DNA of 32,000 nucleotides from Edaphobacter aggregans. Its GTDB lineage: Bacteria > Acidobacteriota > Terriglobia > Terriglobales > Acidobacteriaceae. The position numbers and the translations under genes were made by a program. The stretch lies in contig NZ_RSDW01000001.1 in NCBI RefSeq assembly GCF_003945235.1, positions 1,350,001 through 1,382,000 of the forward strand, in the 5' to 3' direction. How positions within the stretch are numbered: position 1 is the first letter of the stretch; each line of letters opens with the position of its first letter. The notes beneath the pieces are model-generated. The model searched no databases. It was not told the DNA's origin and saw only the letters and a list, made by a program, of their open reading frames with translations. Of this stretch, positions 5,505 to 25,550 are shown one piece after another.

Positions 5505-5508
5505 GATC

Positions 5509-8009: not shown

Positions 8010-8033
8010 GGGAGTCTCCTACGGTTGTCCTAT

Positions 8034-8062
8034 TTTCTACTACACATGTTTGCGCATGGCAA
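8034..8062 (-). promoter_or_regulatory. Candidate sigma70-type promoter of the blaI operon with an embedded BlaI/CopY-type operator (TACAnnTGTA-like)
   Basis: On the minus strand the sequence reads TTGCCA (8062-8057), a 17-nt spacer, then TAGAAA (8039-8034). The spacer contains the plus-strand TACACATGTT at 8041-8050, which matches TACAnnTGTA at 7 of 8 defined positions. The site lies about 30 nt upstream of the TTG start. Confidence 0.35.
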
Positions 8063-8164
8063 GACATTTAAAAATTGACTCCTTCATCAGGTCGGTTGGC
8101 GATAATCAATCTCTGGTCTTCTGGCGTCGCGTATAACTCAGTTACGTGAGCGCTCAGAAATAAA

Positions 8165-8209
8165 CCCAAGAAAAGAACGCCCTTCCTAGCCCAGGGGGGC
8201 GGAAGAGCG
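8165..8209 (-). terminator. Rho-independent terminator of the 8320-11574 barrel gene
   Basis: On the minus strand CGCTCTTCC (8209-8201) pairs with GGAAGGGCG (8186-8178), giving 9 bp with one G-U. The loop is 14 nt and is followed by TTCTTTTCTTGGGTTTATTT. The hairpin lies about 110 nt after the stop codon. Confidence 0.55.
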
Positions 8210-8319
8210 TCGAAAATAGTGAAGCGAGCTAGATTTAGTTCCCCGTAGCGGATGTGTTGAGGGGGAGCAGGAGTCTCAAGACGGGCAGCATGGAAGGCAG
8301 CGTTGCGTCGTTGTAGACG

Positions 8320-11300
8320 TTAGAACTGTAGCTTGAGCGCGAACTGCACGTTGCGAGGCTCACCGTAGCCAAGACCGGGAGCGCCGGCACCGTTGCGGGT
8401 CTGGGTGATACGGCCGAAGGTGGTGGCACTGTTAATGTTGGAGACCGACGGGTTGGCCAAGTTGGCCTGGTTCATGATGTTGAAGCACTCGATGCGGAAC
8501 TCCGACATAATGCGCTCGGTGATGGCCGTGTGCTTGAAGAGCGAAAAGTCGACAGCGCCGAAGCCGGGGCCGTAGAAGTTGTCGCGCTGCAAGTTGCCGT
8601 AGGTGCCGGGAGTCGGCGTGCTGAAGTACGCGGAACCCTGCAGCAGGTATTGGTACTGGCGCGTGCCATTGGCAGCGGTAATGACAGTGCGTCCGGCAAA
8701 GGGGTTGACACCAGTGAAGTTGGGGCGATCCTTCAACTGCTTCGTGGCACTGTTGTCAGTGCTGACGAGCGGGCTGATGGGGGTGCCCCCAGAGAAGGTG
8801 TAGAGTGCGTTGAGTTGCCATCCCTTGCTGACGCGGGGCATGACGTGGAAGAGTTGGGGGGCGTCGTAGTAGACGAAGCCAGTAACGGTGTTGCGAGTGT
8901 CGAAGGTGCTGTTTCCATAGTCCTGATGAATGTTGTAGCTGTTCATCGGAGTAGTAGTGGAGGAGTTGTCATCGAGCGAGTGAGCCCAGGTGTAGTTGAA
9001 GGTGGTTTGGATTCCGTGCCAGGGAGCTTGCTTGATGACAACCTGGAGAGAGTTAAAGTTGGAGTCGGCTGCGTTGTCCAGCTGGTTGATGCCGGCCAGC
9101 GACTTACCGGTGGTGATGGTCTGGCCTGGGAAGGAGAGCTGTTGGTAGGGACGGGCGCTGGCGGTTGATGTTCCGTTAGCAACAGGCTGATTGAGGTCGA
9201 GAAGCGCCAGAAGACGATGTCCCACAGTGCCAACGTATCCAACAGTGACGAGCGTGGACTTCGAAAGCTGCTGTTCGATGCCTAAGCTGTAGGTCTCCGC
9301 GTAGGGGGTCTTGATGTTGGGATTCACACCAAAGGCGCCTAGTTGCGGCGGGTTCGCGCCGACGAAAGGGTTGATGTTGGTTGCGAATGTGACATTGGAG
9401 GCGATGTAGGTGACGGCGGCGTGGGGGCCCGCGGGATTGTTTTGGGTATAGGAGTCACCGCCGTTAGTGGTTGTTCCACTGACCATAGCGCTCATGCCGG
9501 GAACGTCATAGAAGAGGCCATAGGAGCCTCGTATCACAGTCGTGTTATCGTCGAACGGCGAATAGGCAAAGCCAAACCGCGGTCCGAAGGAGCCGTAGTA
9601 GTTCTTGTAGAGCGGGACCTGGAAGGCGGGGGTAGTTCCAGGAACGAAGCTGTAGAGATCGTTGGCTGCGTCGTGCACGACACCGGGAACGGTATAGCGA
9701 ACGCCGAGGTTGAGGGTGAGCTTACGAGTGGCCTGGAAGTCATCCTGCGCCCAGCTGTCTATGGTGTTGAGAAGGAAGATGCGCTCGGCGTTGCCCTGGA
9801 GGAGCTTGGCTCCGGACGCGTTGGTGGGCATGCCGGCGAGAAAATCGCCGATGTAGCTTAATGAGGAGCAATTGGCGCTAAGGCCATTGGCGGCGCAATA
9901 TGCGTTGGCGGCCGGAGTGAGCGCGCCGGCGGCAGTGTCCCAGGGGCCACGCGTGCCGTCGAAGGAAAAACTGCCACGGGCGTTGGAGAAATAGAGGAGG
10001 TCGACGTCGGCGCGACGGAACTCACCACCGAACTTGAGGGCGTGGCGACCGAGGGTCCAGTGAAGATTATCGACGACGTGGCCGGTGACATCGGTGCGGC
10101 CGGAGGGTTGAGTGGCGCCCGTGATGTCGAAGCCGCTGACAGTGAGGGTGGGAGCTCCAGCGGCGATGATGCCGTTGAGTCCAAGGTTGAGACCAGCGTT
10201 CTGCTGGGGGTTGAAGTTCTGGTCAGCGTCGTTGAAGGTCTGTTTGAAGTAGTTAGTACCGAAGGTGATTATGTTCAATAGGTGGCTATTGAAGACAGAG
10301 GTCTGCACGATAGAGGCGTTGTGGATGTGCATGGGTGCAGTCTGGAAGTACTGTGCGTAGTCCGATCCGGTGGGTGCGGTCTGCTTGCCGGTGGTCCCGA
10401 TGTAGTGAAGAGAGATGGAGTACTTATCGGAGAACTTGTGGTCGAGCTTGATGACGCCATTGAAGCTGTTGTAGTTGGAGGCTCCGCTGGCGAAGTAGTT
10501 GTTAGCGGTCGCCGGGCCTGACTTGGAGTTGGCGGGGTAAAGTAGGTTATAGAGGTTCTGGCTGACAGGATTGACGGCGACGCCGAAGTTAGCCATGAAG
10601 CCCTTGGCCTGTGCGATCCAGGCATCGGTCAAGACGGTGTCGGTGAGCGCTACGTTGGCCTTAGCGACCTGGATCTCACCGGCGAGGAAGAGGAAGGTGT
10701 GATCCTTCCAGATGGGGCCGCCGAGGGTGAATCCACCCTGATGGTTGCGGATGAGGGGCTTGCGCGAGCCGACGGCAGCGAATGGCGAGATGGAGGCGAA
10801 GAACTCGTTGCGGTCGAAGTAGAACACATCGCCGTGGATCTTGTTGGTACCGCTCTTGAGGACCATGTTGGAGTTAGCGCCTGCGTTGCGGCCCTGGTCG
10901 GCTTCACCGCCGGACTGCATAGAGAACTGATCGATGGCTTCTATGGGGATGAGGCCGCCGGCGATAGATTGAATGCCGCCCTGGTTGGAAGCCACGATAC
11001 CGAGGTAGGCGTCGACGTTATCGACACCGTCCACCTGATAGTTGATACTGGCTGTGCGTGAGCCATTGACGGAACTGGAGATGTTTACGCCGGGGGCGAA
11101 CTTGATCATCTGGGTGAAGTTGCGTCCGTTCATCGGCATCTCCTGTACGGACTTGGAGTCGATGACAGTGACGAGGGCGGAGGAGGTGGTGTCTGTAGTG
11201 ACGCCGCTGGCATTGACGTCGACAATGGCGGCCTCGGCTCCGACGCTCAACTCGACTTTGAGATCGACAATCTTGGATACGGCGACATCGATGTTATCGA

Positions 11301-11574
11301 TTTTTTGGGTCCGGAAGCCACTGAAGGAGACGGTAAGTTGGTAGGTGCCGACGGGGAGTTCAGGAAAGAGGAAGTCACCCGTTTTGCCGGACTTCGCGTT
11401 CAGCGCGACACCAGTTGCCGGATTGACGAGCACGACGGCGGCGTCTGTAATCACGGCACCCTGTGTGTCCAGGACGGTACCGGAGACTGTGCCACGAAAG
11501 GTTTGGCCGAATGCTGGAAAGGCAATGAGGAAAGTGAGAAGAATTCGAAGGTGCTTTTTCCAGAACTGAGTCAT
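8320..11574 (-). CDS. Outer-membrane beta-barrel, CarboxypepD_reg-like domain plus TonB-dependent-receptor-like barrel (Oar-like), paralogous type to 2382-5504
   Basis: The ORF is 1084 aa with a signal peptide (MTQFWKKHLRILLTFLIAFPAFGQ). It carries a CarboxypepD_reg motif (TFRGTVSGTVLDTQGAVITDAAVVLVNPATG...KTGDFLFPELPVGTYQLTVSFSGF) and plug-like residues (DSKSVQEMPMNGRNFTQMIKFAPGV). The barrel ends in FALKLQF. Confidence 0.85.
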   Translation of the reverse strand: MTQFWKKHLRILLTFLIAFPAFGQTFRGTVSGTVLDTQGAVITDAAVVLVNPATGVALNAKSGKTGDFLFPELPVGTYQLTVSFSGFRTQKIDNIDVAVSKIVDLKVELSVGAEAAIVDVNASGVTTDTTSSALVTVIDSKSVQEMPMNGRNFTQMIKFAPGVNISSSVNGSRTASINYQVDGVDNVDAYLGIVASNQGGIQSIAGGLIPIEAIDQFSMQSGGEADQGRNAGANSNMVLKSGTNKIHGDVFYFDRNEFFASISPFAAVGSRKPLIRNHQGGFTLGGPIWKDHTFLFLAGEIQVAKANVALTDTVLTDAWIAQAKGFMANFGVAVNPVSQNLYNLLYPANSKSGPATANNYFASGASNYNSFNGVIKLDHKFSDKYSISLHYIGTTGKQTAPTGSDYAQYFQTAPMHIHNASIVQTSVFNSHLLNIITFGTNYFKQTFNDADQNFNPQQNAGLNLGLNGIIAAGAPTLTVSGFDITGATQPSGRTDVTGHVVDNLHWTLGRHALKFGGEFRRADVDLLYFSNARGSFSFDGTRGPWDTAAGALTPAANAYCAANGLSANCSSLSYIGDFLAGMPTNASGAKLLQGNAERIFLLNTIDSWAQDDFQATRKLTLNLGVRYTVPGVVHDAANDLYSFVPGTTPAFQVPLYKNYYGSFGPRFGFAYSPFDDNTTVIRGSYGLFYDVPGMSAMVSGTTTNGGDSYTQNNPAGPHAAVTYIASNVTFATNINPFVGANPPQLGAFGVNPNIKTPYAETYSLGIEQQLSKSTLVTVGYVGTVGHRLLALLDLNQPVANGTSTASARPYQQLSFPGQTITTGKSLAGINQLDNAADSNFNSLQVVIKQAPWHGIQTTFNYTWAHSLDDNSSTTTPMNSYNIHQDYGNSTFDTRNTVTGFVYYDAPQLFHVMPRVSKGWQLNALYTFSGGTPISPLVSTDNSATKQLKDRPNFTGVNPFAGRTVITAANGTRQYQYLLQGSAYFSTPTPGTYGNLQRDNFYGPGFGAVDFSLFKHTAITERIMSEFRIECFNIMNQANLANPSVSNINSATTFGRITQTRNGAGAPGLGYGEPRNVQFALKLQF

Positions 11575-11808: not shown

Positions 11809-12966
11809 TCAGCCAGCAGTGCGCCCGAAATGGAAAGCCAGAAGCGTAATGTCATCCTCAGGTTCCCGCCCTAAAGCAAGATTCGACCATTGAGATAACG
11901 CTTCAAGAAGCTCATCGACGAATTGCCCCGTTGATAAGTCATGATTGTCCTGGAGAAATTGCTTGAAGCGATCTAGACCAAATTGCTCATCTGAAGGGTC
12001 GGTCATTTCCAGGATTCCGTCGGTGTAAAGGACGCCCCAGTCACCCGCTTTGAAAGGTATCTCCACCGCGGTGTAGGTGGCCTCCGGGAAGAAACCAAGA
12101 AACAAACCGTTCTCGACGAAGTCGCGTGCCTTCCCTGCCGAGTGGTCCATGAAAATGAGTGGTGGGTGTCCCGCACCTGCATAGAGAAGACTTTGCCTTT
12201 CCGTATCTACCACCACATACACCGCGGTGACAAAATGGCCCTGGAATTTTCCACACAACGTACGATTCAGGCCAGCCAACACGCGCGCAGGCTCCAAGGC
12301 ACATTTAATTTGACCGTCCAGTGCAATCTTGAGCATGGATGATATAAGCGCGGCGGGCATGCCGTGGCCAGATACATCCGCTACCAAAATGCCGATCCGC
12401 TTCTCGTCGATCGGGATAAAGTCGTAGAAATCGCCTGCCACCGCCGTCATGGGAAGATAACGGGCTGAAATGTCCAGACCCCTGATTACAGGGATTTCGC
12501 GCGGCAAGATAGACAATTGAATCTGTCGCGCAGTGTCCATTTCACACTGGATGCTTTGCAATTGGCGCGCTAGTTGTTCGCGTATACCGCGGAGCATAAG
12601 GTGTGTACGTACTCTGGCTTGTACGACTGCTGGCGAGAACGGTTTATGAATATAGTCGACCGCCCCGACCTCGAACCCCTTCGTTTCATCGTCAATCTCA
12701 GTTTGACCCGTTAGAAAGATCACGGGAATGTCCCGCGTATGGTCAGCAGACTTAAGACGGGAGCAAACTTCGTACCCGTCCATCTCGGGCATCATGACAT
12801 CCAGAAGAATCAGATCGGGAGCGGGAGTTTGATTTGCAAGTTCTAAAGCCTTCGCGCCACTTGTCGCAATACGAGTCTTGTAGATGTCTTTGAGAATCGA
12901 GTTCACAATCTGGATGTTTGCGGGCTCATCGTCTACGAGTAACAATGTCTTCACTTCGGCGTTCAT
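11809..12966 (-). CDS. Response regulator receiver fused to a PP2C/SpoIIE-type serine phosphatase (RsbU/HsbR-like)
   Basis: The ORF is 385 aa. REC motifs are LLLVDDEPANIQ, LILLDVMMPEMDGYEV, VIFLTGQ and DYIHKPF. PP2C/SpoIIE motifs are VAGDFYDF, LVADVSGHGMPAAL, LLYAGAGHPP and VLYTDGILE. Its first 41 nt overlap the end of the hybrid kinase gene. Confidence 0.9.
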   Translation of the reverse strand: MNAEVKTLLLVDDEPANIQIVNSILKDIYKTRIATSGAKALELANQTPAPDLILLDVMMPEMDGYEVCSRLKSADHTRDIPVIFLTGQTEIDDETKGFEVGAVDYIHKPFSPAVVQARVRTHLMLRGIREQLARQLQSIQCEMDTARQIQLSILPREIPVIRGLDISARYLPMTAVAGDFYDFIPIDEKRIGILVADVSGHGMPAALISSMLKIALDGQIKCALEPARVLAGLNRTLCGKFQGHFVTAVYVVVDTERQSLLYAGAGHPPLIFMDHSAGKARDFVENGLFLGFFPEATYTAVEIPFKAGDWGVLYTDGILEMTDPSDEQFGLDRFKQFLQDNHDLSTGQFVDELLEALSQWSNLALGREPEDDITLLAFHFGRTAG

Positions 12967-15900
12967 CCTTTACCTCCTTCCGATTCAGGCTATGTTCTCT
13001 GGCGATGTCGTCCAGCTTCAACAGGGCTCCGCTAAAATTGAAATCGTTTATATCTGCACCAAGTGCATCCAATAGCGCCTTATCAACTTGGCGGGCAAGA
13101 ACACTTCGTAGTACACGAAACGTCTCCTCTGAAGCGCCATCGCTGGCCTCGAGTTGGCTCCGCAACCGTGTGATTTCACATGAAGCTCCAGCGGGATCGA
13201 AGTTTTTTCTTGATTCGTTTTCGGACGTGGGTGTCGCTAACGTGCACAAAGCCTGCTCTATTGCCTCAATCTGAGCGCGCATGACTGAAATGAAATCCTG
13301 GAGCATCGTTGGAACTTCCGAATCGTTCTCGCGAATTGCTTTTTCTAATTTCTCCGCTGCGAATTGAACTCGCTTGATACCGATGTTCCCGGCGACACCT
13401 TTTACTGTGTGAGCAATGCGCTGAGCCAGTTCGCGATCTCCGCTCTGAAGAGCAGCTTTGACCAGCACGCCTGAGTCGTTGTGCTTCTCCGCAAACTTCA
13501 CAATCAGGCCCCGATACAATTGCCCATTGCCTCCCACTCGCTTGAGGCCATCCTTGATGTCTATACCTTCAATTTCAGGAATATCGGCGATATTTTGTGA
13601 AAAGGCCGTCTCAACCTTCTTACCTGGAGGCTCAGAGCTCAGGACTCGGCGTGGTTTTGCCCAGTGCACCAATGTCGCGAACATCGCGTCCGGATCAATT
13701 GGTTTACTCACATGGTCGTTCATCCCCGCTTGCCTACACAATTCGCGGTCCGCGTCCATCGCGTTGGCGGTCATAGCGATGATGGGCAGCCCACGGAAAC
13801 GTTGGTCAGACCTGATCGCTTTTGTGGCTGCGATTCCATCCATTACCGGCATTTGCATATCCATCAACACAAGATCGTAATCATGCTCGCTCACCATTTG
13901 GACCGCCACCTTGCCATTCTCAGCTATGTCGACGGACATGTGAGCGGCCCCGAGCAGTCCCATCGCGACTTCGCGATTAAGTTCATTGTCTTCCACCAGC
14001 AGCACTCGAACCCCATGTAATCGGTCAAGGTTTAAACTTGAATTGGCCGGAACTTCTGCGATTCTTTCGTCACCAATTCCCAGAGCTTCGACGGATGAAT
14101 CGAAAAGCATGGATGCCGTAACTGGCTTGACGAGAACGCTGGCGAAGGCATTGTCATCGGCTTGCTTTAGAACCTCCTCACGACCGTAAGCTGTAACCAT
14201 CACCAGACGTGGCGGAACGACAACATTCGGCAACGCCCGAATTCGTTTCCCCGTTTCAATGCCATCCATCTCTGGCATCTGCCAATCGACAAAAGCGATC
14301 TCGTACGGCTTGTCTAATTCGGCTGCTTTGCGAACCATTTCAATGCCTTCCTGTCCAGAGGCTGCCTCATCCGCAATGAAGGTCATACTTGTCAGCATGC
14401 TCGACAACACCTCACGTGCCTGTGAATTGTCATCGATAATCAGAACGCGTCGACCACGCAAGTCCGGCCGGGAGAGCTTCCGCAGTGGAGCTGTGCTCTT
14501 GCCGAGGCGAGCCGTGAACCAAAATGTGCTTCCCTTACCCAGTTCGCTGGCCACTCCGACATTACCGCCCATCAACTGTGCCAATCGCTTGGAGATAGCC
14601 AACCCAAGTCCGGTGCCGCCGAACTGTCTCGTCGTAGAAGTGTCCGCTTGCTCGAATGCCTGAAACAGTCGCCCCATTTGTTCCTCGGTAAGGCCGATGC
14701 CAGTGTCGCTAACCGAGAAGCAGACAAGTTTACTGTCCTCATCTTCCTCCTGGATCCGAACTTTGACGACGATCTCGCCCTGCTCTGTAAACTTAACGGC
14801 GTTGTTGCAGAAGTTGATCAGGATTTGGCCCAACCGCAGTGGGTCGCCCTTGAGTTGGGTTGAGACCGAGGGCTCAATGTCGAAGATCAGTTCCAAACCT
14901 TTGGACGAGGCCTTCTCGGAGAGAAGATTGCTGACGTTCTCCAACACTTTATCGAGATTGAAGTCAATGTTTTCTACAGACAGCTTGCCAGCTTCGATCT
15001 TCGAGAAATCCAGAATATCGTTGATGATGCCGAGCAGATGCTGGCCGGACTGTTGAATCTTCCTGACATAGTCTCTTTGACGATGGTCAAGTTCAGTCCT
15101 CAATGTCAAATGCGACATGCCAATGATCGCATTCATCGGTGTGCGAATTTCATGGCTCATATTGGCCAGGAAATCGGACTTCGCCTTCGTGCCCGCTTCC
15201 GCTACCTCCTTGGCCTCAAGGATCGCCGCCTCTGCCCATTTACGTTCTGTGATGTCCTTAACATTGGCTACGATAATCTGCTGGTTCATATAGTCTGCAC
15301 AGTACAAAGTGACCTCAGCATCGAATACGCGCCCATCTTTAGCACGATGTTTTGACTCTCGAGTCAGAACAGGTTTATCCCGAAGAAGCTCTATGACTTC
15401 TTTCAGCTTGTCGGGGCCAAACTCAGTGATTTCGCTGATGGGAGTAGCCAGCAATTCCTCTCTCGTGTAGCCAAGGCTCCGACTAGCCTCCTCATTGACA
15501 TATTCCAACCCTCCATCTGTTGTACGAATCCAGAAAACCGCGTCGGCTGCGTGGTCCACCGCATATTGTGTGAAGCGAAGGCGCTGCTCGACCCGTTGAC
15601 GCTCTGTAATGTCTTCGTGCAACGAGATAACGTATTGCGGCTTACCCTGGGCATCCCGGATAAGTTTGAATCTTCCACTCGCAACGATGATGCTGCCATC
15701 AGGCCGGATGAAGCGTTGTATATACTCATCCTCATCGCGCTTCCCTTCAATAAGATCGGCATACCTCCTTGCTCCCTCGGCGCGGTCATCTGGATGAATG
15801 ATCTTGTCCCATTTCTTCGTGTCGTTCAATTCTTCCGCGCTGTAGCCCAACTGCTCAAGTTGAGTGCGGTTGCTTAAATGCTCCCTCGTATTGATGGCAT

Positions 15901-17677
15901 AGATGCCGATTCCAATCTGCGCATTCTCGAAAATGGAACGGAACCGCTTCTCGCTTTCCTGTATAGCTTGTTCACTTCGTATTCGCTCTGTTATGTCTTG
16001 GATCGCCACAACTGCCCCCACAACCTGATCTCCCTTCCGAATTGGCGTGGTGCTGTATTCTACGCAGAGGCAACTTCCGTCCTTCTTCCAGAGGACTTCG
16101 TCCGAAGATACGTGGCGTTGCCCGTCGTGGGCGGTCTTGGACATCCAACAATCTTCTGCAGGGTATGGCGATCCATCGGGATAGGCGTAATGAACGGCTG
16201 CATGCATCGGCTGGCCAATGAGTTCCTCCGGCTCATAGCCCAACATTCGAGCGCCTGCAGGATTCACAAATGCAACCGTCCCATCTGCGCTGAGTCCCCA
16301 GATGCCATCCGCCACTGACGACAAGATTAGGCGAGACCTTTCCTCCACCGCTGCCAGAGTCTCTGCCTGCTGCTGAGTGTGTTCGAGCAGCTTTCTGGTC
16401 TTGATGTTGGCGGACAACATCTCCGAGTTCATCGCCAAAACAGGCATGAGTGCTTCAAGCAGAACCTGTTGGCGGTCCGATAGTGCTAAAGTCGGTGCTA
16501 GTTCGAGGACTCCCATCACAACGTCCTGGTGTACTACCGGCATTAGGAGGAGAGTGCGAGGCTTGAGCGTTCCGCTCCCGCTCAAAATACTGAGCTTATC
16601 TTCCTCGTTTGCGGAAACCACTAGTGTCCGCCGTTCCACAGCCGCCTGGCCGATGAGTCCCTCTCCAAAAATAAATTCCCGGGCCTCATCTGGACCATCA
16701 AGAGCAAATCCTCCGACACGAGCCAACCGAGCGTGACTTTCATCGGCAACATAAAGAGCGCCGTAGAGCAGCGGGATGGACTCAGAGAGGCGCGAAAATA
16801 AACATCTCCCGAATTCTGCAAAATTCACGGAAGATTGCAACTCCTCCGCGATATCCGAAACCTCAGCCTTCACCCAATGCTGGATTGCGCGTTCGCGAGC
16901 ACTATCCTGTAGAGTGCGCAATGCTCGGCTGATCGCGCCTATTTCGTTCGTCTGGTTGAGGTAGGGGATCATTTGATCCAGCTGTCCGTCGGCAAGAGCC
17001 TGGACGCTACCGCGCACGGCCAATAATTCGCCGATAACTTCGGTCTGGACGATATAAAGGGTGAAGGTTAGAGTCGCCGCAAGGCCGAGGCAGACGACAA
17101 GCCATGTGATCAGAATGGCGCGGTGAGTTTTTCTCGTGAGATCGTCAGATTGCCGGTCTACAGTCGTTCGCAATTCGTCCACCGAGTCGATGGCAGCCTG
17201 CCTCGCCTGCTGCAATTCCATACCCGCGTCCCCGCGTATCAAACTCAGGGCCTTTTCGGTATTGTTCGCCAATGCTGAGGCACGAATAGGACGTGCATCT
17301 GACATCGCCTTATCGAAAAGGGCCGCGGTGGCCTTGATTGCCTTGGCGTGATCTGGACTCTGAGCCATTGCTTCCGCCATACGCGTTTGAAAATCAGCGT
17401 AGATCTTGTCTAGCTCTCCATCGATTTTTACCCTCCTATCGGGGTCAGGCTCGGTAACCTCCTCATAGAGGAAAAGACCAACTCGATTCGCGTGTGCTCG
17501 AGCCACCGAGAGGCTCTGCAACGTCTTGACGTCATGGTCGATCATATTGCTATAGTGGGCATCGATCTGCCTACTTGTGATCGACGAATATAGTGTCGCT
17601 AGGACCACCATCAGCGCCAGTGGCAGCACTGTGAGAAGCAACTTGGCTCGAATTCTCAGATTTGCTAATAGAGCCAT
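12926..17677 (-). CDS. Hybrid sensor histidine kinase: TM, periplasmic helical (4HB_MCP-like) sensor, TM, HAMP, GAF, three PAS, HisKA, HATPase_c, two REC and Hpt
   Basis: The ORF is 1583 aa with two TM helices flanking a helical region of about 150 aa. The H-box is FLANMSHEIRTPMNAIIGM and the G-boxes are SDTGIGL and GGTGLGLAISKRL. The two receivers are VLIIDDN...FVDWQMPEMDG...VKPV and VLLVEDN...LMDMQMPVMDG...VSKPI. The C-terminal Hpt motif is AHTVKGVAGNIG. PAS signatures include repeated DITERxxxE boundaries. Confidence 0.9.
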   Translation of the reverse strand: MALLANLRIRAKLLLTVLPLALMVVLATLYSSITSRQIDAHYSNMIDHDVKTLQSLSVARAHANRVGLFLYEEVTEPDPDRRVKIDGELDKIYADFQTRMAEAMAQSPDHAKAIKATAALFDKAMSDARPIRASALANNTEKALSLIRGDAGMELQQARQAAIDSVDELRTTVDRQSDDLTRKTHRAILITWLVVCLGLAATLTFTLYIVQTEVIGELLAVRGSVQALADGQLDQMIPYLNQTNEIGAISRALRTLQDSARERAIQHWVKAEVSDIAEELQSSVNFAEFGRCLFSRLSESIPLLYGALYVADESHARLARVGGFALDGPDEAREFIFGEGLIGQAAVERRTLVVSANEEDKLSILSGSGTLKPRTLLLMPVVHQDVVMGVLELAPTLALSDRQQVLLEALMPVLAMNSEMLSANIKTRKLLEHTQQQAETLAAVEERSRLILSSVADGIWGLSADGTVAFVNPAGARMLGYEPEELIGQPMHAAVHYAYPDGSPYPAEDCWMSKTAHDGQRHVSSDEVLWKKDGSCLCVEYSTTPIRKGDQVVGAVVAIQDITERIRSEQAIQESEKRFRSIFENAQIGIGIYAINTREHLSNRTQLEQLGYSAEELNDTKKWDKIIHPDDRAEGARRYADLIEGKRDEDEYIQRFIRPDGSIIVASGRFKLIRDAQGKPQYVISLHEDITERQRVEQRLRFTQYAVDHAADAVFWIRTTDGGLEYVNEEASRSLGYTREELLATPISEITEFGPDKLKEVIELLRDKPVLTRESKHRAKDGRVFDAEVTLYCADYMNQQIIVANVKDITERKWAEAAILEAKEVAEAGTKAKSDFLANMSHEIRTPMNAIIGMSHLTLRTELDHRQRDYVRKIQQSGQHLLGIINDILDFSKIEAGKLSVENIDFNLDKVLENVSNLLSEKASSKGLELIFDIEPSVSTQLKGDPLRLGQILINFCNNAVKFTEQGEIVVKVRIQEEDEDSKLVCFSVSDTGIGLTEEQMGRLFQAFEQADTSTTRQFGGTGLGLAISKRLAQLMGGNVGVASELGKGSTFWFTARLGKSTAPLRKLSRPDLRGRRVLIIDDNSQAREVLSSMLTSMTFIADEAASGQEGIEMVRKAAELDKPYEIAFVDWQMPEMDGIETGKRIRALPNVVVPPRLVMVTAYGREEVLKQADDNAFASVLVKPVTASMLFDSSVEALGIGDERIAEVPANSSLNLDRLHGVRVLLVEDNELNREVAMGLLGAAHMSVDIAENGKVAVQMVSEHDYDLVLMDMQMPVMDGIAATKAIRSDQRFRGLPIIAMTANAMDADRELCRQAGMNDHVSKPIDPDAMFATLVHWAKPRRVLSSEPPGKKVETAFSQNIADIPEIEGIDIKDGLKRVGGNGQLYRGLIVKFAEKHNDSGVLVKAALQSGDRELAQRIAHTVKGVAGNIGIKRVQFAAEKLEKAIRENDSEVPTMLQDFISVMRAQIEAIEQALCTLATPTSENESRKNFDPAGASCEITRLRSQLEASDGASEETFRVLRSVLARQVDKALLDALGADINDFNFSGALLKLDDIAREHSLNRKEVKDERRSEDIVTRRR

Positions 17678-17761
17678 CTTTTCTCCGTGGCTAACAGAGG
17701 AACTTATCTGCGTTCCTGCGAGGAGAACCTATCATCCTCGAACTCAATTCAAACCACTCTA

Positions 17762-18436
17762 CTACTCGTTGAATCCACGCTCCAACCCTATCGCTTTTTG
17801 CGATCTGTGAATTTCAAAAATACTTTCAGGACTTGCGGCAGAATTTGCCGAGAAATATTGGTTGAGCCCGGCAGCAACCTCTTTCAGTCCCCGATCGAGA
17901 TTGGTATCCAGCGCCGCCACGACCGCGGAGATTTCCTTGCCTTGTATGGGTTCAGATTGGGAATAGAAATGCTTCCAAACAATCTTGCCCGATTTCCGGT
18001 CATAGAGTTCAAACTCCATAGACACGAGTCCCTCGATATTCGCGCCGTCGACTTCTTCAAAGTTGTAGAGCCTGCCTCGAATCACGAATTGTCCGCCCGA
18101 ATTGCTCCCAAGGCCGCTAACAGACTGATAATCGCCTGAAGCACTCAGCACGCGTATTAATTTGCTCTTGATCAATTCGACCGGAGGCTCCACCCAACGG
18201 CTATGCTGGTACGCGCCAATCTGGTTGGTGCCGATGCGATACAAGATCGGCGTGTCCCGAAATACTTCCGCTCCTCCGATGCCTCCAACTAATAAAGATA
18301 CGGGGTATGCGCTTGTCGTAAGTGTGGGTGTTCGAGGGCTCTGTACTGTGTAATAGTGGATGGGCTTGCCCCCGCCACACCCGCTTAGACTCAAGGCGAG
18401 CGGTGATATCAAAACGAGTCGGGCCATTCGATGCAT
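17762..18436 (-). CDS. ABC-transport auxiliary lipoprotein (PqiC/YmbA, DUF330/ABC_trans_aux-like)
   Basis: I place the start at MHRMARLVLISPLALSLSGCGG, which gives a lipoprotein signal with an LSGC lipobox. The size and position, directly downstream of an MCE gene, fit the auxiliary lipoprotein family. The 18493 TTG start in the track adds 19 aa before the signal peptide and has an SD that sits too close. The functional call rests on context and overall pattern. Confidence 0.65.
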   Translation of the reverse strand: MHRMARLVLISPLALSLSGCGGGKPIHYYTVQSPRTPTLTTSAYPVSLLVGGIGGAEVFRDTPILYRIGTNQIGAYQHSRWVEPPVELIKSKLIRVLSASGDYQSVSGLGSNSGGQFVIRGRLYNFEEVDGANIEGLVSMEFELYDRKSGKIVWKHFYSQSEPIQGKEISAVVAALDTNLDRGLKEVAAGLNQYFSANSAASPESIFEIHRSQKAIGLERGFNE

Positions 18437-18574
18437 AGGAAACCTCTTCCGTAGGGCACTAGATATTGCTTTAAAGACCTGCTCTTGTATCAACTCCTCC
18501 CGTCTACCCTCTTTGCTCCGCGGAGAACTAGCCGTTAGAAATAGTCATTGGTCATCCCCGTGGAGATCCTTGCC

Positions 18575-19537
18575 TTACTTCTCGCCGGGTTTTCGATCTT
18601 TCCCATTGTTTCCACGAATAAGCACTGCAGGGTTGGTCTTCAACGAATCCGTCAGTATTTTCATGTTTTCGCTTGTAATGCGGATATTCTCGAGGATTTG
18701 GTCGATGTTGTCCGTGTTGTTGTCCGTCGTATTTTTTAGCTGCTCGATAAGAGCTTGTGCGTTGAGCATGGTCTCTTTTAGCTCGACGACTATTGTCCGA
18801 ATGTCCTGGCGATTCTCAACCACGAGAGCGTCAACGTGCGACAAGGTCTCGTTTGCCTGATTCATGGTTGACTTAAGGTCATCTAGCAAGGGTACAAGCT
18901 TGGCACTCGCGACCTGTACGTTCGCTAAGCTCCCTGATATCTTCGGACGGTTTTCAGCGAGTATGGCATTCAAGTTTCCTAGACTGTTGCCTATGTTCTC
19001 GCGGTTCTTGTCGTTCAGCAGATCGTTGACGCGGGCCAGTGTCACCTGCAGTTCCGTGAGGCGTTGGTTCAGGGTTTGCATAACCTGATTGACAACGGGG
19101 GTGAGGCCTCCAATCATATCGCCTAGATCACCAATTCCCACTGTCTCGACGGACTTCAGTTCGCTGCCGGGTGCTGCAAGTTGGCCTCCTTTTGTTCCGG
19201 TTCCGATCTCCACATAGTTATCGGAAAGCGCCCCCAGGCTGGAAATTTTCGCGATACTATCGGTCTTTACCGGGATGTCACGCTGTACACTAAAGTCGAT
19301 CTCAATGCGGGTCGAGTCTTTGGGATCCACCCGTACAGCCTCGACCTTGCCGGCTTTCATACCTCCGTAGCGAACTGCGGCACCAGGCAAAAGACCGCCG
19401 GCCGACTTAAAATAGGTATGATGTGCGACCCCGCCCGAAGCAAAAGTGCCGGACACAGCCAAGATTGTCCCAATTAGCAGTGCCGCCGCAACTATTACAA
19501 AAAAACCCACTGCGGCCTGCTCGCGTTTGCTGTTCAT
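18575..19537 (-). CDS. MlaD/MCE-domain protein with a long C-terminal helical extension
   Basis: The ORF is 320 aa with an N-terminal TM anchor (AAVGFFVIVAAALLIGTILAV). The MCE core is YFKSAGGLLPGAAVRYGGMKAGKVEAVRVDP...IEIDFSVQRDIPVKTDSIAKISSLGALSDNYVEI. About 170 aa of Leu/Asn/Gln-rich helical sequence follows. Confidence 0.85.
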   Translation of the reverse strand: MNSKREQAAVGFFVIVAAALLIGTILAVSGTFASGGVAHHTYFKSAGGLLPGAAVRYGGMKAGKVEAVRVDPKDSTRIEIDFSVQRDIPVKTDSIAKISSLGALSDNYVEIGTGTKGGQLAAPGSELKSVETVGIGDLGDMIGGLTPVVNQVMQTLNQRLTELQVTLARVNDLLNDKNRENIGNSLGNLNAILAENRPKISGSLANVQVASAKLVPLLDDLKSTMNQANETLSHVDALVVENRQDIRTIVVELKETMLNAQALIEQLKNTTDNNTDNIDQILENIRITSENMKILTDSLKTNPAVLIRGNNGKDRKPGEK

Positions 19538-19567
19538 ACTGTCCTCATCTTCAAGGTCTCCAAACTT

Positions 19568-20386
19568 TCAATCCTTCGCGGTCTTGCGGTCCCCCGTGAG
19601 CATCTGCAGATAGTCGAGTTCATCGAGGACCTCAGGCTCCGGCACTCGATCCAAAAACTGGCGCACCCTCGGATGAGTACTTGCTTGGAACTCCTCTTTG
19701 GTTCCCAGCGCTATGATGTGGCCACGATCGACATAGACCATACGGTCTGCGATTAGAAATGCACTGGCCAATTCGTGGGTTACCACGACCATTGTTATGG
19801 CATAGGCTTTCTTTAGATTCATGATTAGTTCATCGAGTCCCGCAGCAATGATGGGATCCAGCCCTGCGGAGGGTTCATCGAAAAACAGTATCTCCGGATC
19901 CATGGATAATGCGCGCGCGACAGCGGCACGCTTCTTCATTCCGCCGCTTAATTCCGAAGGCATGTAGTCTTCGAAATTGCTGAGCCCAACTTGTCCGAGC
20001 TTGATCCTCACCATAATCTCGATGGTGGAGTCTTCAAGATTGGTGTGTTCGCGCAATGGCAACGCAACGTTCTCGCCAACGGTTAACGATCCGAATAACG
20101 CCGAACCCTGGAACGACATACCCATTTTCTTGCGAATCACATCCATCTCTCGCTCGGAAATATTTGCGATATTCACACCTTGAATCCACACTTCACCTGA
20201 ACTCGGCTTTTCCAAACCGACTAATGTTCGTAATAAGGTACTTTTCCCTGAGCCTGACCCACCAAGAATCACCATAGTTTCCCCCCGACGGACGTCAAAC
20301 GTAATCCCATGGAGGATTTCGCGTTCACCGTAAGACACACTAAGGTTAACCACTGAAATGGCCGCATCGCTAGCATCATTAGTCAT
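19568..20386 (-). CDS. ABC transporter ATP-binding protein, MlaF-like
   Basis: The ORF is 272 aa. It has Walker A GGSGSGKST, signature LSGGMKKRAAVARAL, Walker B ILFFDEPSAGLD and H-loop VVTHEL. It lies between the MlaE-like and MlaD-like genes. Confidence 0.9.
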   Translation of the reverse strand: MTNDASDAAISVVNLSVSYGEREILHGITFDVRRGETMVILGGSGSGKSTLLRTLVGLEKPSSGEVWIQGVNIANISEREMDVIRKKMGMSFQGSALFGSLTVGENVALPLREHTNLEDSTIEIMVRIKLGQVGLSNFEDYMPSELSGGMKKRAAVARALSMDPEILFFDEPSAGLDPIIAAGLDELIMNLKKAYAITMVVVTHELASAFLIADRMVYVDRGHIIALGTKEEFQASTHPRVRQFLDRVPEPEVLDELDYLQMLTGDRKTAKD

Positions 20387-20496
20387 TTTGGGGTCCTGTT
20401 GCCGCGACTGGTTTACTAACTAACCGTACATAAAAACGGTTCTAACTCCGTGATCGGCAGATTGTGAGACATCATACGTGCTATCCTTCTCCTGCG

Positions 20497-21321
20497 TTAG
20501 GTGGGATTAATAAAATAAAACAGGCTTGTAAACACAAGGTCGACAACAATCACAAGAGCTATCGAGGTTACGACTGCCGCCGTTGTCGAGCGTCCGACCT
20601 CCTCAGCTCCGGCTCCCGTTGAAAAACCCTCTTTGCACCCAACGGCCGTGATGACCAATGCGAACAGCGCGCTCTTGATGAGACCTGTGTAGATATCGCG
20701 CGCGAGGATAGCCTCTCGCGTTGCTTGGAAATAGGAGGCGATAGTAAAGTCGGCGCCAGTGACGCCGAAGACACATCCCCCTACAATGCCCATGAAGTCA
20801 GCCCAGACTGTAAGACACGGCATCATCACCAGCATTGCCATAAATTTAGGTGCGACAAGGAAGGCCACAGGATCGAAAGCCATCGTTCGGAGAGCATCTA
20901 CCTCCTCAGTCACCTTTTTAGTGCCGATCTCCGCGGCGAAAGCCGATCCCGAACGACCGATGACGACGATGGCTGTAAGTAACGGTCCAAGTTCTCGTAG
21001 AATAGAAATAGCCACGGTGCCCGCCACCAGTTGCATCGCACCTAACCGACGCAGTTCATAGGCACTCTGCAGTGCCATGATTAAACCAACGAAGAAGGTA
21101 ATCAGCGAGATAATAGGTATAGCTTCAACGCCGACGGCCATAGCCTGATGGATTGCTCGATTGGGGCGTAGACGCTGACCCTCGAAAGGGCCCACAAAGG
21201 TAACATGGGCGGACTGGCCCGCGAGGGTAGCTAGATCCCCTATGTAAGCAAAGCCGCTCATCGTCCAGAGGCCGACAATTCCTGGTACAGCTGCGAACTT
21301 TTCCGTCACTTTCAACGACAT
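20497..21321 (-). CDS. ABC transporter permease, MlaE/YrbE family
   Basis: The ORF is 274 aa and polytopic. Family-typical stretches are LRELGPLLTAIVVIGRSGSAFAAEIGTKKVTEEVDALRTMAFDPVAFLVAPKF and KSALFALVITAVGCKEGF. Confidence 0.9.
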   Translation of the reverse strand: MSLKVTEKFAAVPGIVGLWTMSGFAYIGDLATLAGQSAHVTFVGPFEGQRLRPNRAIHQAMAVGVEAIPIISLITFFVGLIMALQSAYELRRLGAMQLVAGTVAISILRELGPLLTAIVVIGRSGSAFAAEIGTKKVTEEVDALRTMAFDPVAFLVAPKFMAMLVMMPCLTVWADFMGIVGGCVFGVTGADFTIASYFQATREAILARDIYTGLIKSALFALVITAVGCKEGFSTGAGAEEVGRSTTAAVVTSIALVIVVDLVFTSLFYFINPT

Positions 21322-21399
21322 ATGCTTCCGCTCCAGAGAACTGTCCCAGCGGTATTCCGAACGGCCATCGACGAAAAGCCTGATGCGGGATATGCAATT

Positions 21400-21744
21400 T
21401 CAAGCAATAAGTGCTTGCTCCTCGGTTTCGCATATTTCAAAAACACCAGTTAGATGCGTAAGTTGTAGTACTTGAAGGACAGCACCACTTACCCCAAACA
21501 AGACAAACCGCTTATTGGAATTACGTGCTTCTTTGAGGACCTCCAGAAGTGAGGCGATCCCGGAGCTATCGATATACTTTACTGCGCTCAGGTTTATAGC
21601 TACACTTTTCGTTCCATTCAATGATTCCAAAAGTGTCTTGCGAAGGATTGGCGAACTTCCGAGGTCTATCTGACCTACTACGTCAACGATCGTGACCCCT
21701 CTTTCAATCCGTGTCGAAGAACCCATCTGTCTGTCCATATCCAT
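21400..21744 (-). CDS. STAS-domain protein (anti-sigma-factor antagonist RsbV/SpoIIAA-like, and positionally MlaB-like)
   Basis: The ORF is 114 aa with a conserved phosphorylation-loop motif YIDSSGIASL. I verified DSSG at nt 21570-21559. It lies between an RsbW-like kinase gene and mlaE. The start could be Met1, Met3 or Met7. Confidence 0.85.
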   Translation of the reverse strand: MDMDRQMGSSTRIERGVTIVDVVGQIDLGSSPILRKTLLESLNGTKSVAINLSAVKYIDSSGIASLLEVLKEARNSNKRFVLFGVSGAVLQVLQLTHLTGVFEICETEEQALIA

Positions 21745-21832
21745 CCCCTATGTAGGCTAAAACAGAGATAGCCGTTGATCCTTCAGTGTCCACGACTAAC
21801 AACTCCATTATGCGTATGAAGATTTTTCATAA

Positions 21833-22279
21833 TCAATGCGGCACCGATCCGTCATTATCGATTCTCCCCTTATCAGATGACAGGTGCTTAACTAGCCTTA
21901 CTCGATTGCCCCCTGGAACTCGCTCGTAATACACCTCATCCATGATCGCCTTCATTAGATGGGTTCCGCGTCCAGTCAGCGAAACGTCATCCAACGGCTG
22001 CCCGCATATCCTGGCCAGATCTGGTGGCTCGCCCCAATCAAGAAGCGTAAAAACTATCCGATTAGAATCAGTCTGACAGTTCAATTCGATCTCCTGGTCA
22101 TAACGGTTTCTGTAGGCATGTCGGATAATATTGGCTAAGCCCTCATCAACGGCCAAAGTGACTCCTCGGCACAACTCCTCCGACAATCCGCAAATCGCAC
22201 TTACCTCGCTCACCGCGGCGCGGGCAATCGATAAGAAGCGAGGATCGCTTGGCACAATAAGTTTCAAATGAAAGTCCAT
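21833..22279 (-). CDS. RsbW/SpoIIAB-like anti-sigma-type serine protein kinase (HATPase_c_2)
   Basis: The ORF is 148 aa. It has an N-box-like EGLANIIRHAY, a DxG motif (LLDWGEP) and a G2-like TGRGTHLM. It sits directly upstream of the STAS gene. Confidence 0.8.
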   Translation of the reverse strand: MDFHLKLIVPSDPRFLSIARAAVSEVSAICGLSEELCRGVTLAVDEGLANIIRHAYRNRYDQEIELNCQTDSNRIVFTLLDWGEPPDLARICGQPLDDVSLTGRGTHLMKAIMDEVYYERVPGGNRVRLVKHLSSDKGRIDNDGSVPH

Positions 22280-22888
22280 TTAGCTTGGCTAGGCGCCTCC
22301 ATTTGGGACGATGCACCAAGAAGTCTTTTTAGCTGTAGTTCGCTACGTCCAATTTACTAGGCCGATAGAATGTAAAAAATCCAGCTTCAGACGCATCGCA
22401 TTGAGAAATGCAAGCTTGAGGGTATTCCATAGCGTCGGGCCCGCCACAGCGCTCTACCATTAGAGTGTTGTGGTTAGGGAAGGCACGAAAGACTTATACT
22501 TGCTTATTTCGTCCCCACCCTCTATTCCGTTTGAAACGCAACGACTCAATATAACTCTTGTTCGTTGATAGCGCTAGCTCAGAAAAGTATTAAAGGGCTT
22601 ATGGGCACTTCCGTCTCTCTGTTTTTTTTGAATACAGCAGTAGTCCCAGAGAGATCGAGTTTCTGTTCTCAGTAGGCCCAAAGATAATTTGAAAGGGAGC
22701 CTCTAGTTTGATCTCCCCCATCCTGCGTTATCACCGGACCGGGGCTGGCGGCAAGGATCATCTCTTTTATTTTGTTTAGGCTACCAAAGGGCCAGGCCGG
22801 GGGTCGAAGGCCCAATGCGTGCTTGTTCTGTCGTGACAATCGAGAAAGCGGGCAACCTACGACAGCCTCGCAAGACTCAAAGCCACCC

Positions 22889-23728
22889 TTAATACCTTTC
22901 CGGGATGAAGCGATATGGATAGTCTGGCTCTACGTACCCTTTCGATTTCTGTCTGAGAGGAAGACTCACCTTTTCGAGTTCGATCTCTTCGTAAGGGATT
23001 AGGCTAAGGAAATGTGAGATGCAGTTCAATCGAGCGCGCCGTTTGTCGTCTCCGTTAACGACGTACCATGGCGACCTCTCGGTGTCTGTAGCCGCGAACA
23101 TCGCATCTCGCGCTCGCGAATAGTCGTACCAACGACGGTGCGATTCCAGATCCATGCCGCTAAGCTTCCAGATTTTCCTAGGATCGTTGATGCGTTCGCA
23201 GAATCTGCGGGTCTGTTCCTCCTTGCTCACTTCGAACCAATATTTGATCAGTATTACACCGGCTTCGATGATATCTCTCTCCCAGGCCGGACATACTTTG
23301 AGGAATCTCTCGTATTCTTCGTCCGTGCAAAACCCCATCACCCTCTCAACGCCGAGACGGTTATACCAACTTCGGTCAAAAATAACGATCTCGCCTCCTG
23401 CTGGGAGATGCTCGAAATATCGCTGAAAATAAATTTGTGTGCGCTCTCGCTCGGACGGAGCGGGAAGAGCAACTACCCGAAATACGCGGGGGCTCACTCG
23501 TTCAGTGATCCGTTTGATGACGCCGCCTTTGCCAGCCGCGTCTCTGCCTTCAAAGATAACTGCAACTTTCGCTCCCGTATGCTTCGCCCACAATTGCAGT
23601 TTGACTAGTTCTGCATGAAGCTTGGCGATTTGCTCTTCATATTCTTTGCGCTGGAGCTTTGGCTTGTCAGTTGATTTTGCCTGTAAGTTTTGAATCTTGC
23701 CGGGCTGACTCTTTCGCTTTTTGTCCAT
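22889..23728 (-). CDS. ppk2: Polyphosphate kinase 2 (single-domain PPK2)
   Basis: The ORF is 279 aa. It has a PPK2 Walker A (VIFEGRDAAGKGG), the stretch YFQRYFEHLPAGGEIVIFDRSWYNR, and WKLSGMDLESHRRWYDY. Its ATG lies 3 nt after the stop of the upstream Na/Pi cotransporter gene. Confidence 0.9.
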   Translation of the reverse strand: MDKKRKSQPGKIQNLQAKSTDKPKLQRKEYEEQIAKLHAELVKLQLWAKHTGAKVAVIFEGRDAAGKGGVIKRITERVSPRVFRVVALPAPSERERTQIYFQRYFEHLPAGGEIVIFDRSWYNRLGVERVMGFCTDEEYERFLKVCPAWERDIIEAGVILIKYWFEVSKEEQTRRFCERINDPRKIWKLSGMDLESHRRWYDYSRARDAMFAATDTERSPWYVVNGDDKRRARLNCISHFLSLIPYEEIELEKVSLPLRQKSKGYVEPDYPYRFIPERY

Positions 23729-23731
23729 AAC

Positions 23732-25417: not shown

Positions 25418-25550
25418 CCCGCACCTTCTGATCGCAGTTTTTTGGATGCAAGCAAAATATCGTCGTGAACTCGTGTTTCTCTATTTCCAGCTACAGCCAG
25501 AGACCTCAGCCATCGCCGATAATCAGGCTGTCCTTGGAACAGCGAAACGT

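Follow-up and report, generated by a model that had tools for sequence, protein, structure and literature searches.

A predicted sigma-less partner switch encoded with an Mla/Mpc-type lipid ABC transporter in Edaphobacter aggregans and related bacteria

What does a partner switch control when its genes adjoin those of a lipid transporter and no sigma factor is encoded with them? We addressed this question for a window of Edaphobacter aggregans DNA (the whole stretch analysed, 32,000 nucleotides (nt) of contig NZ_RSDW01000001.1), in which an open reading frame (ORF) listing and Pfam/NCBIfam scans place eight consecutive minus-strand genes at 11809-22279. An earlier note made from the sequence had read their order as rsbW-like, STAS, mlaE, mlaF, MCE, PqiC-like lipoprotein, hybrid histidine kinase with Hpt, and REC-PP2C, which Pfam and the coordinates confirm, and had proposed that the output of the switch is the ATP-binding cassette (ABC) lipid transporter itself. 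That proposal is supported by our analysis: the synteny on which it depends holds in other genomes, fusions of STAS to MlaE exist, and the predicted phospho-acceptor of the STAS protein, Ser60, aligns with Thr52 of E. coli MlaB. We therefore favor, by a modest margin of belief, a model of a sigma-less partner switch whose output would be the Mla/Mpc-type lipid ABC transporter of the same operon, with the STAS protein controlled through Ser60.

The linkage between the switch and the transporter is widely conserved. An exhaustive HMMER search with STAS returned 10,282 clusters at E<=1e-3, and the alignment of STAS representatives was used to draw loci, with each GTDB species represented by one genome; the loci described here are the best 80 of 590 confirmed STAS matches (44-79% identity), in which ORFs were called and searched with the window proteins. 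In this set, which was chosen by STAS similarity and a DSSG-containing pattern and whose counts describe one orthologous group, mlaE lies directly 3' of STAS in 79/79 loci with enough flanking DNA (the denominator throughout), and is followed by mlaF in 75/76, the MCE gene in 74/75 and the PqiC-like lipoprotein gene in 68/73. The kinase gene stands immediately 5' of STAS in 74 of 79 loci (the script scored 71, and three more proved on inspection to be ORF-merging artefacts), and a PP2C gene is found within 10 kb in 35 of 58. These proportions say nothing on the fraction of all Mla systems so regulated, and conservation of the serine within the loci holds by construction because the selection pattern contained DSSG.

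The order rsbW-STAS-mlaE-mlaF-mlaD-lipoprotein is kept in Terriglobales, Bryobacterales/Solibacteraceae, Acidoferrales-type metagenome-assembled genomes (MAGs) and Alpha- and Gammaproteobacteria, the proteobacterial loci being those of Terasakiella pusilla DSM 6293 (an isolate), Magnetospirillum, Rhodospirillales MAGs and one Gammaproteobacteria MAG. The module is present in at least two phyla. Absence of this synteny from related genomes had been named beforehand as grounds for abandoning the proposal; the synteny is present in Acidobacteriota and beyond. None of the six genes that flank the module in the window recurs beside it in the related loci. MAGs labelled Verrucomicrobiia, Dormiibacterota, Eremiobacteraceae, Limnocylindria and Eisenbacteria were rejected as evidence of breadth, their loci looking Acidobacteriota-like. 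The oddly labelled MAGs, which also include Cybelea and Udaeobacter, are L007, L015, L016, L022, L024, L032, L034, L036, L045, L049, L056 and L065; L007, for example, is labelled Verrucomicrobiia, yet has 70% STAS identity and the full Terriglobales-type set of histidine kinase and REC-PP2C. Their sequences suggest that these contigs are mislabelled or mis-binned. Elsewhere, kinase and STAS share a single ORF in L030 (9563-10330) and L039 (9491-10294), as do STAS and MlaE in L073 (9812-10654); such merged frames reflect either genuine fusions or frameshift/indel errors of long-read MAG assembly. Two further lines of argument were set aside. That STAS and MlaF have higher identity across phyla than the other module proteins was dropped as evidence of co-constraint because the loci had been selected on STAS similarity, and residue co-variation between STAS and MlaF was rejected, since a set of about 76 pairs is much too small and the signal is confounded by phylogeny.

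Around this constant core, the signaling genes are mobile. The Terriglobales pair of histidine kinase and REC-PP2C lies downstream on the same strand in the window, L005 and L006, is reordered in L007, is split between strands in L003, and is upstream and divergent in L001 and L004, with patatin and other genes intervening in L001. In all seven Terriglobales-type loci (L001-L007), the histidine kinase is found no further than 10 kb from the transporter, in at least four arrangements, and the pair is kept in six of the seven, L002 showing the histidine kinase only. Bryobacterales loci carry a short PP2C upstream of the kinase and Acidoferrales-type loci a convergent PP2C after the lipoprotein gene. 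Three Acidoferrales-type MAGs (L050, at 12115-17154, L059 and L061) have mlaF separated from the MCE gene by genes for a CHASE3-PAS histidine kinase, a stand-alone REC protein and a REC-PAS hybrid kinase, and no PP2C lies within 10 kb. In the alphaproteobacterial L078, L079 and L080, and also in L072, PP2C and RsbW-like kinase are fused in one protein; that of T. pusilla DSM 6293 (L080, 8068-10002) has 644 residues and the Pfam architecture GAF-PP2C-HATPase_c_2. The gammaproteobacterial MAG encodes an HDOD-PP2C (L077, 1042-2754). The predicted input from a histidine kinase and Hpt to a REC-PP2C is limited to Terriglobales; in other lineages, a PAS, GAF or HDOD domain accompanies the PP2C, or there is no sensor domain. 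Because the flanks are unconserved and the positions and orientations of the PP2C and histidine kinase genes vary between loci, the linkage is selected and not residual colinearity, and the arrangement is what one would expect if the inputs of a functional module were interchangeable.

Two of these loci deserve a separate remark. In L001, a gene for a 743-residue patatin-like phospholipase (7055-9286) lies between the divergent histidine kinase/REC-PP2C pair and the rsbW-STAS-mla operon; its position beside a lipid transporter could be either significant or fortuitous. In T. pusilla DSM 6293, the module genes overlap or lie a few nucleotides apart and look like one tight operon.

Which component of the switch would contact the transporter? 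Five loci (L032, L048, L066, L068 and L070) have neither a kinase nor a PP2C nearby and still keep STAS-mlaEFD, which makes the transporter the constant partner of STAS; in three of the five, STAS comes first after a neighboring gene that is divergent. The plasmid collection yielded kinase-free operons of the order STAS::MlaE-MlaF-MCE-lipoprotein in Azospirillum sp. B510 and Ruegeria, whose fused MlaE proteins (391 and 374 residues, respectively) bear an N-terminal STAS_2 domain; L083 and L084 have the permease-ATPase-MCE-lipoprotein order of the window. Brucella MpcE is likewise a STAS domain fused to a permease, in the MpcEFDA 'Mla-Pqi chimeric' system, which also has a 331-residue MCE protein, MpcD, and a PqiC-like lipoprotein (PMC12436622). 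Because the kinase-free operons share their gene order with the module, the free STAS gene occupies the exact place of the fused domain. The MlaE homolog search retrieved only close, unfused Terriglobales relatives and no fusions, and tblastn of STAS against plasmids retrieved generic anti-sigma antagonists only. A Rhizobium jaguaris match (L082) was rejected as a member of the module, being a STAS and PP2C pair without Mla genes.

The residue that would be phosphorylated falls at a suggestive position. In alignments, Ser60 falls on Thr52 of E. coli MlaB and on the threonine of the fused STAS domains (D-T-x-G). MlaB Thr52 is centrally placed in the interface between MlaF and MlaB, the T52E substitution weakens MlaF binding, and MlaB is required for MlaF to remain on the complex (PMC7367683). 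Kolich et al. (2020) regarded phosphorylation of MlaB as an intriguing open possibility for which a kinase was not known (PMC7367683). The C terminus of the ATPase offers a second resemblance: the D-Y-L-x-x-L-T tail of the MlaF-like protein, kept in nearly all kinase-linked loci from Edaphobacter to Terasakiella, resembles the GDYHADLL tail of E. coli MlaF, of which Y261, L265 and L266 dock in the MlaF/MlaB groove (PMC7367683). The MlaF proteins of the fused-STAS operons have no such tail.

These observations are consistent with the following mechanism. In function, the STAS protein would correspond to E. coli MlaB and to the STAS domain fused in MpcE, and in its unphosphorylated form would bind MlaF and support assembly and activity of the transporter. 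The RsbW-like kinase would phosphorylate Ser60 at the N terminus of helix alpha-2, and phospho-STAS would be released, switching the transporter down; we propose release because the MlaB equivalent of Ser60 sits at the center of the MlaF interface. The PP2C would strip the phosphate from STAS and reverse the release. In Terriglobales, PP2C activity would be set by its REC domain, fed from the Hpt of the adjacent membrane hybrid kinase with its periplasmic 4HB_MCP sensor, and in other lineages the phosphatase would act with a PAS, GAF, HDOD or no sensor domain. In its broadest form, this model describes a widespread class of partner switch without transcriptional output, gating an envelope-spanning MCE/Mla-type transporter post-translationally, in which STAS is at once the kinase/PP2C substrate and a dissociable ATPase subunit, and the inputs (two-component/Hpt, PAS, GAF or HDOD) are interchangeable. 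We regard the arguments for and against this generalization as evenly balanced.

The regulatory proteins of the window have the motifs that such a switch would require. The closest solved relative of the kinase is B. subtilis RsbW (6m36_A, E=7e-9), and in alignment with 6m36_A and SpoIIAB the N-box (DEGLANIIRHAY), G1 (DWG), G2 (GRGTHLM) and E46/N50/H54 match. It is a member of the family and not an ortholog, because against the equivalog models of RsbW and SpoIIAB it scores far under the cut-offs (58 vs 145 bits). STAS exceeds the NCBIfam anti-sigma factor antagonist model TIGR00377 (72.8 bits, cut-off 53.45), and the DSSG motif named in the earlier note is present in its translation as D59-S60-S61-G62. 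In its AlphaFold2 model (pLDDT 93.2), Ser60 starts the helix spanning residues 60-75, and the serine is kept in all 24 of the closest full-length cluster representatives in the alignment, where it is numbered S59 with the start codon omitted. The exact 114-residue STAS translation is absent from a 15-billion-protein collection in which the neighboring MlaE and REC-PP2C are present, and STAS homologs mostly have 112 or 108 residues. The true start is therefore probably Met3 or Met7, and its use instead of the ATG at 21744 would shift the residue numbers by 2 or 6.

The REC-PP2C protein, identical in sequence to E. aggregans RSL15627.1, has intact REC residues (D12, D13, D56, T86 and K108, with Asp56 as the acceptor) and intact PP2C metal-binding motifs (GDFYD, DVSGHG, TDG and EDDIT). 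In the hybrid kinase, the H-box SHEIRTP, two REC acceptor aspartates and the Hpt motif HTVKG (Hpt E=9e-10) are recognizable, and a 4HB_MCP domain is flanked by two hydrophobic segments, which imply a periplasmic sensor. The 'envelope signal' suggested as the input is a guess from this predicted periplasmic domain. Thus, a single-domain STAS with a putatively phosphorylatable serine, a HATPase_c_2 kinase and a SpoIIE/RsbU-type PP2C are all present, and an Hpt donor and a REC-PP2C acceptor are encoded with the STAS and the kinase. The predicted Hpt to REC-PP2C relay resembles HptB-HsbR; the fusion of kinase to REC-PP2C that characterizes HsbR is absent, the two being separate genes in the window.

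The transporter genes likewise form a coherent set. The permease, identical to E. aggregans RSL15632.1, lacks a STAS domain, the STAS gene being separate and 78 nt upstream. The closest NCBIfam model of the ATPase is MlaF, with a score under the curated cut-off, and among solved structures it is closest to MlaF chains from Mla complexes (E=1e-61 to 4e-54); it has the Mla-specific LSGGM signature and a C-terminal extension of about 25 residues ending in DYLQMLT. The MCE protein has an N-terminal membrane anchor, an MlaD domain and an extension of about 180 residues that looks helical from sequence, with weak coiled-coil-type matches (Apolipoprotein, Mce4_CUP1) at residues 137-297. In the PqiC-like lipoprotein, the lipobox LSGC lies 3' of an internal Met, and the probable start is the Met giving MHRMARLVLISPLALSLSGC. 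The window thus combines MlaE, MlaF (with LSGGM and the C-terminal extension) and an MCE protein in one putative operon with the Mpc order of permease, ATPase, long MCE protein and PqiC-like lipoprotein. Neither MlaC (PF05494) nor MlaA (PF04333) was found among the 18 large ORFs of the 32 kb scanned with Pfam. Because of this, and because STAS fails the MlaB model, the transporter is classified from its genes as an Mpc-type Mla/MCE system and not an E. coli-type Mla system. As such a system, it would be expected to span the envelope and move phospholipids.

Several observations, in addition to the way in which the loci were chosen, weigh against control of the transporter by STAS. The score of STAS against the MlaB model NF033618 is 27.4 bits, below the cut-off of 90, and phmmer matches it to TM1442 at E=1.7e-14 vs E=0.04-0.1 for MlaB chains. 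The best fold neighbors of its model are the phosphorylatable antagonists TM1442, RsbV and SpoIIAA (TMq 0.80-0.88), whereas MlaB ranks 36th and below (TMq 0.61-0.66). By sequence and predicted fold, STAS is thus of the SpoIIAA/RsbV type and outside the MlaB family, and it is only 10-16% identical to the fused STAS domains and remote from MlaB. The proposed equivalence of STAS and MlaB comes from gene position and not from homology, because sequence and fold are closest to SpoIIAA/RsbV. Moreover, 19 of 51 kinase-bearing loci with full flanks have no PP2C within 10 kb, and we infer the operon structure of 11809-22279 from gene spacing alone.

The alternative that survives best is a conventional anti-sigma switch, in which the kinase sequesters an unlinked sigma factor, STAS is the antagonist, and the transporter genes are co-regulated in the same stress response. 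It would account for the closeness of STAS and the kinase, in sequence and fold, to the RsbV/RsbW and SpoIIAA/AB pairs, and our inspection of this genome for sigma factors covers 32 kb. Over that whole length, the statement in the earlier note that no sigma factor lies in or beside the cluster is borne out: none was found among window ORFs of at least 40 residues (phmmer with six sigma queries, best E=0.19) or among the 18 large window ORFs scanned with Pfam, so that the sigma factor classically encoded with a partner switch is missing. In the related loci, a sigma-like gene occurs within 10 kb in only 7 of 81, and none in the other 74. Three of these loci speak for the anti-sigma alternative, since in L031, L065 and L069 the PP2C gene is immediately preceded by a gene for an extracytoplasmic function (ECF) sigma factor, with an overlap of 4 nt in L031 (3006-3596) and L069 (6413-7264) and a 22-nt gap in L065 (6186-7112). 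No other sigma gene adjoins the module in any of the 81 loci, however, and the three belong to two unrelated ECF groups, those of L065 and L069 being 52% identical and that of L031 unrelated to them (25%). ECF sigma factors are not the usual binding class of RsbW-type kinases. The five kinase-less loci keep STAS beside mlaE, and co-regulation alone leaves unexplained both the invariant adjacency of STAS and mlaE across phyla and the STAS::MlaE fusions that mirror it. We therefore consider an anti-sigma switch unlikely, though it deserves to be taken seriously.

Less probable still is that the RsbW-like kinase itself binds and inhibits MlaF/MlaE, and that unphosphorylated STAS captures the kinase and never contacts the transporter. 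This would follow the canonical RsbW/SpoIIAB logic and would suit a STAS of SpoIIAA rather than MlaB type, and the kinase gene (74/79 loci) is as tightly linked as STAS. However, in the sole structural precedent it is a STAS domain that contacts MlaF (PMC7367683), five loci have STAS without the kinase, and the permease is found fused to STAS and not to the kinase, which Alphaproteobacteria instead fuse to PP2C. That STAS acts on an unlinked target, such as a c-di-GMP enzyme or an anti-sigma factor as for HsbA, or in the manner of SypA, with the transporter a bystander, seems very improbable: sigma-less STAS outputs do exist, SypA acting when unphosphorylated (PMC8256260), but this would explain neither why STAS adjoins mlaE in 79/79 loci, across phyla and despite unconserved flanks, nor the STAS::MlaE fusions.

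Taken together, control of the transporter through Ser60 of STAS is the reading that we prefer, and the features of the locus on which it is based are collected in Table 1. Recomputed from the ORF coordinates, the intergenic gaps are exactly those given in the earlier note (88, 78, 110, 30, 81 to 138, and 84 nt, then a 41-nt overlap of the REC-PP2C gene start with the hybrid kinase gene), the range of 81-138 nt arising because the lipobox comes after an internal Met of the lipoprotein ORF. That note's failure to see a convincing terminator within the cluster also stands, as minus-strand hairpins are all intragenic and not enriched over shuffles (9 terminator-like hairpin(-plus-T) sites vs 11.1 +/- 3.6, all inside coding sequence). 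Promoter and terminator consensus scans were discarded as uninformative, with counts at or below those of shuffles and the sigma-70 consensus doubtful for Acidobacteriota. The region 22280..22888 contains no ORF of at least 60 residues wholly inside it (an ORF at 22772-23002 extends into the PPK2 gene), no Rfam family, and only short repeats at chance level, and no promoter was recognized in it.

Table 1. Coordinates and family assignments of the features of the predicted module in the window
Feature	Coordinates (strand)	Length	Family or domain evidence
RsbW/SpoIIAB-like serine protein kinase	21833..22279 (-)	148 aa	Pfam HATPase_c_2 (PF13581) E=1.8e-27
Single-domain STAS protein	21400..21744 (-)	114 aa from ATG at 21744	Pfam STAS E=5.8e-20
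Ser60 codon (AGC), predicted phospho-acceptor in D59-S60-S61-G62	21565..21567 (-)		
MlaE-family ABC permease	20497..21321 (-)	274 aa	Pfam MlaE E=4.6e-75; TIGR00056 236 bits, above cut-off
MlaF-like ABC ATPase	19568..20386 (-)	272 aa	Pfam ABC_tran E=4.7e-33
Long MCE protein	18575..19537 (-)	320 aa	Pfam MlaD E=2.8e-17 at residues 40-112
PqiC-like outer-membrane lipoprotein	17762..18493 (-)		ABC_trans_aux (former DUF330/PqiC family) PF03886 E=4.7e-12
Hybrid sensor histidine kinase	12926..17677 (-)	1583 aa	TM-4HB_MCP-TM-HAMP-GAF-PAS x3-HisKA-HATPase_c-REC-REC-Hpt (Pfam; TM, transmembrane segment)
REC-PP2C phosphatase	11809..12966 (-)	385 aa	Pfam Response_reg E=1.6e-27, SpoIIE (PF07228) E=3e-48
Non-coding region 5' of the kinase gene, presumed operon promoter/leader	22280..22888	609 nt	

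The remainder of the window is described here for completeness. On the same strand and 5' of the cluster (22889-28304) lie genes for a polyphosphate kinase 2 (PPK2), a Na/Pi cotransporter with a PhoU domain and a P-type cation ATPase, which may form a phosphate/cation unit 609 nt from the rsbW-like gene. On its other side (2382-11574, minus strand), two giant CarboxypepD_reg-OMP beta-barrel genes, one of 1084 residues (CarboxypepD_reg/OMP_b-brl_4, 8320-11574, minus strand) and a paralog of 1063 residues (2382-5573), enclose genes for a BlaI-like repressor (7626-8009) and for a BlaR1/M56 protein that ends in a DUF3738 domain (5509-7626). Plus-strand GC skew reaches +0.23 to +0.26 at 8001-11000, across the 1084-residue gene, and elsewhere stays within about +/-0.16, including over the 2382-5573 paralog. 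Two minus-strand ORFs, at 214-2379 (721 residues) and 29246-29653 (135 residues), have no Pfam family at E<=1e-3, and a tRNA-Leu (anticodon TAA) at 31036-31124 (minus strand) is the only Rfam or ARAGORN match in the window.

The earlier note knew of no description of phospho-control of an MCE/Mla transporter by a partner switch, and our full-text searches, the coverage of which is incomplete, gave no paper that describes it; one of them turned up only the MlaFB structure paper, a paper on A. baumannii Mla and a review on H. influenzae, beside unrelated items. A 2021 review of STAS-only proteins does not mention Mla or ABC transporters, and a 2023 Mla phylogenomics paper, in its accessible part, scores MlaB only as a syntenic STAS and has nothing on kinases. 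A kinase, a phosphatase and sensory inputs kept in evolution beside an Mla/Mpc transporter bear on how inter-membrane lipid traffic might be controlled quickly. If the model is correct, the module would be an instance in nature of the phospho-regulated 'MlaB' whose possibility was left open by Kolich et al. (2020), and an ABC transporter would join the short list of partner-switch outputs other than sigma factors. Edaphobacter aggregans DSM 19364 and Terasakiella pusilla DSM 6293 are cultured carriers.

Finally, the module can be compared with known systems, each of which shares only some of its features. Like E. coli MlaFEDB, it comprises MlaE, MlaF with LSGGM and a C-terminal extension, an MCE protein and a co-encoded small cytoplasmic STAS protein, and like MlaB, its STAS has a hydroxyl residue at the N terminus of helix alpha-2 (Thr52 in MlaB, Ser60 here). 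In contrast to MlaB, however, the STAS protein keeps the full C-terminal strand and helix missing from MlaB in the alignment, and has dedicated kinase and phosphatase genes, whereas MlaB has no known kinase; the MCE protein is long, a PqiC-like lipoprotein is present, and the order is STAS-E-F-D rather than F-E-D-C-B. The Brucella abortus MpcEFDA, Azospirillum and Ruegeria systems share the MlaE-like permease, MlaF-like ATPase, MCE protein of about 320-330 residues and PqiC-like lipoprotein in the same order (PMC12436622). In Mpc, though, the STAS domain is fused to the permease N terminus, bears D-T-x-G and has no adjacent kinase or phosphatase, whereas here STAS is free, bears DSSG and adjoins a kinase, and the MlaF protein has the D-Y-L-x-x-L-T tail.

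Among partner switches, RsbU/V/W and SpoIIE/AA/AB have the same triad of STAS, HATPase_c_2 serine kinase and PP2C with all motifs, but here no sigma factor lies in or near the cluster and the conserved neighbor is a membrane transporter. In P. aeruginosa HptB-HsbR-HsbA, as is proposed here, the phospho-state of a STAS protein is a sigma-less output (HsbA binds FlgM or HsbD), and the proteobacterial relatives of the module have an HsbR-like fusion of PP2C and kinase. Vibrio fischeri SypE-SypA also has STAS phospho-state as its output, kinase/phosphatase activities with a REC domain, and genes inside the cluster of the machinery that it controls (PMC8256260). Both differ from the present module in having other targets and no link to an ABC/MCE transporter, and in that kinase and phosphatase are separate proteins here. 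On the input side, B. cereus RsbK-RsbY is a hybrid histidine kinase feeding a REC-PP2C (PMC9912610), as is predicted for Terriglobales. In function, SypE-SypA, HptB-HsbR-HsbA and the RsbK-RsbY input are the closest precedents for the module of Edaphobacter aggregans.

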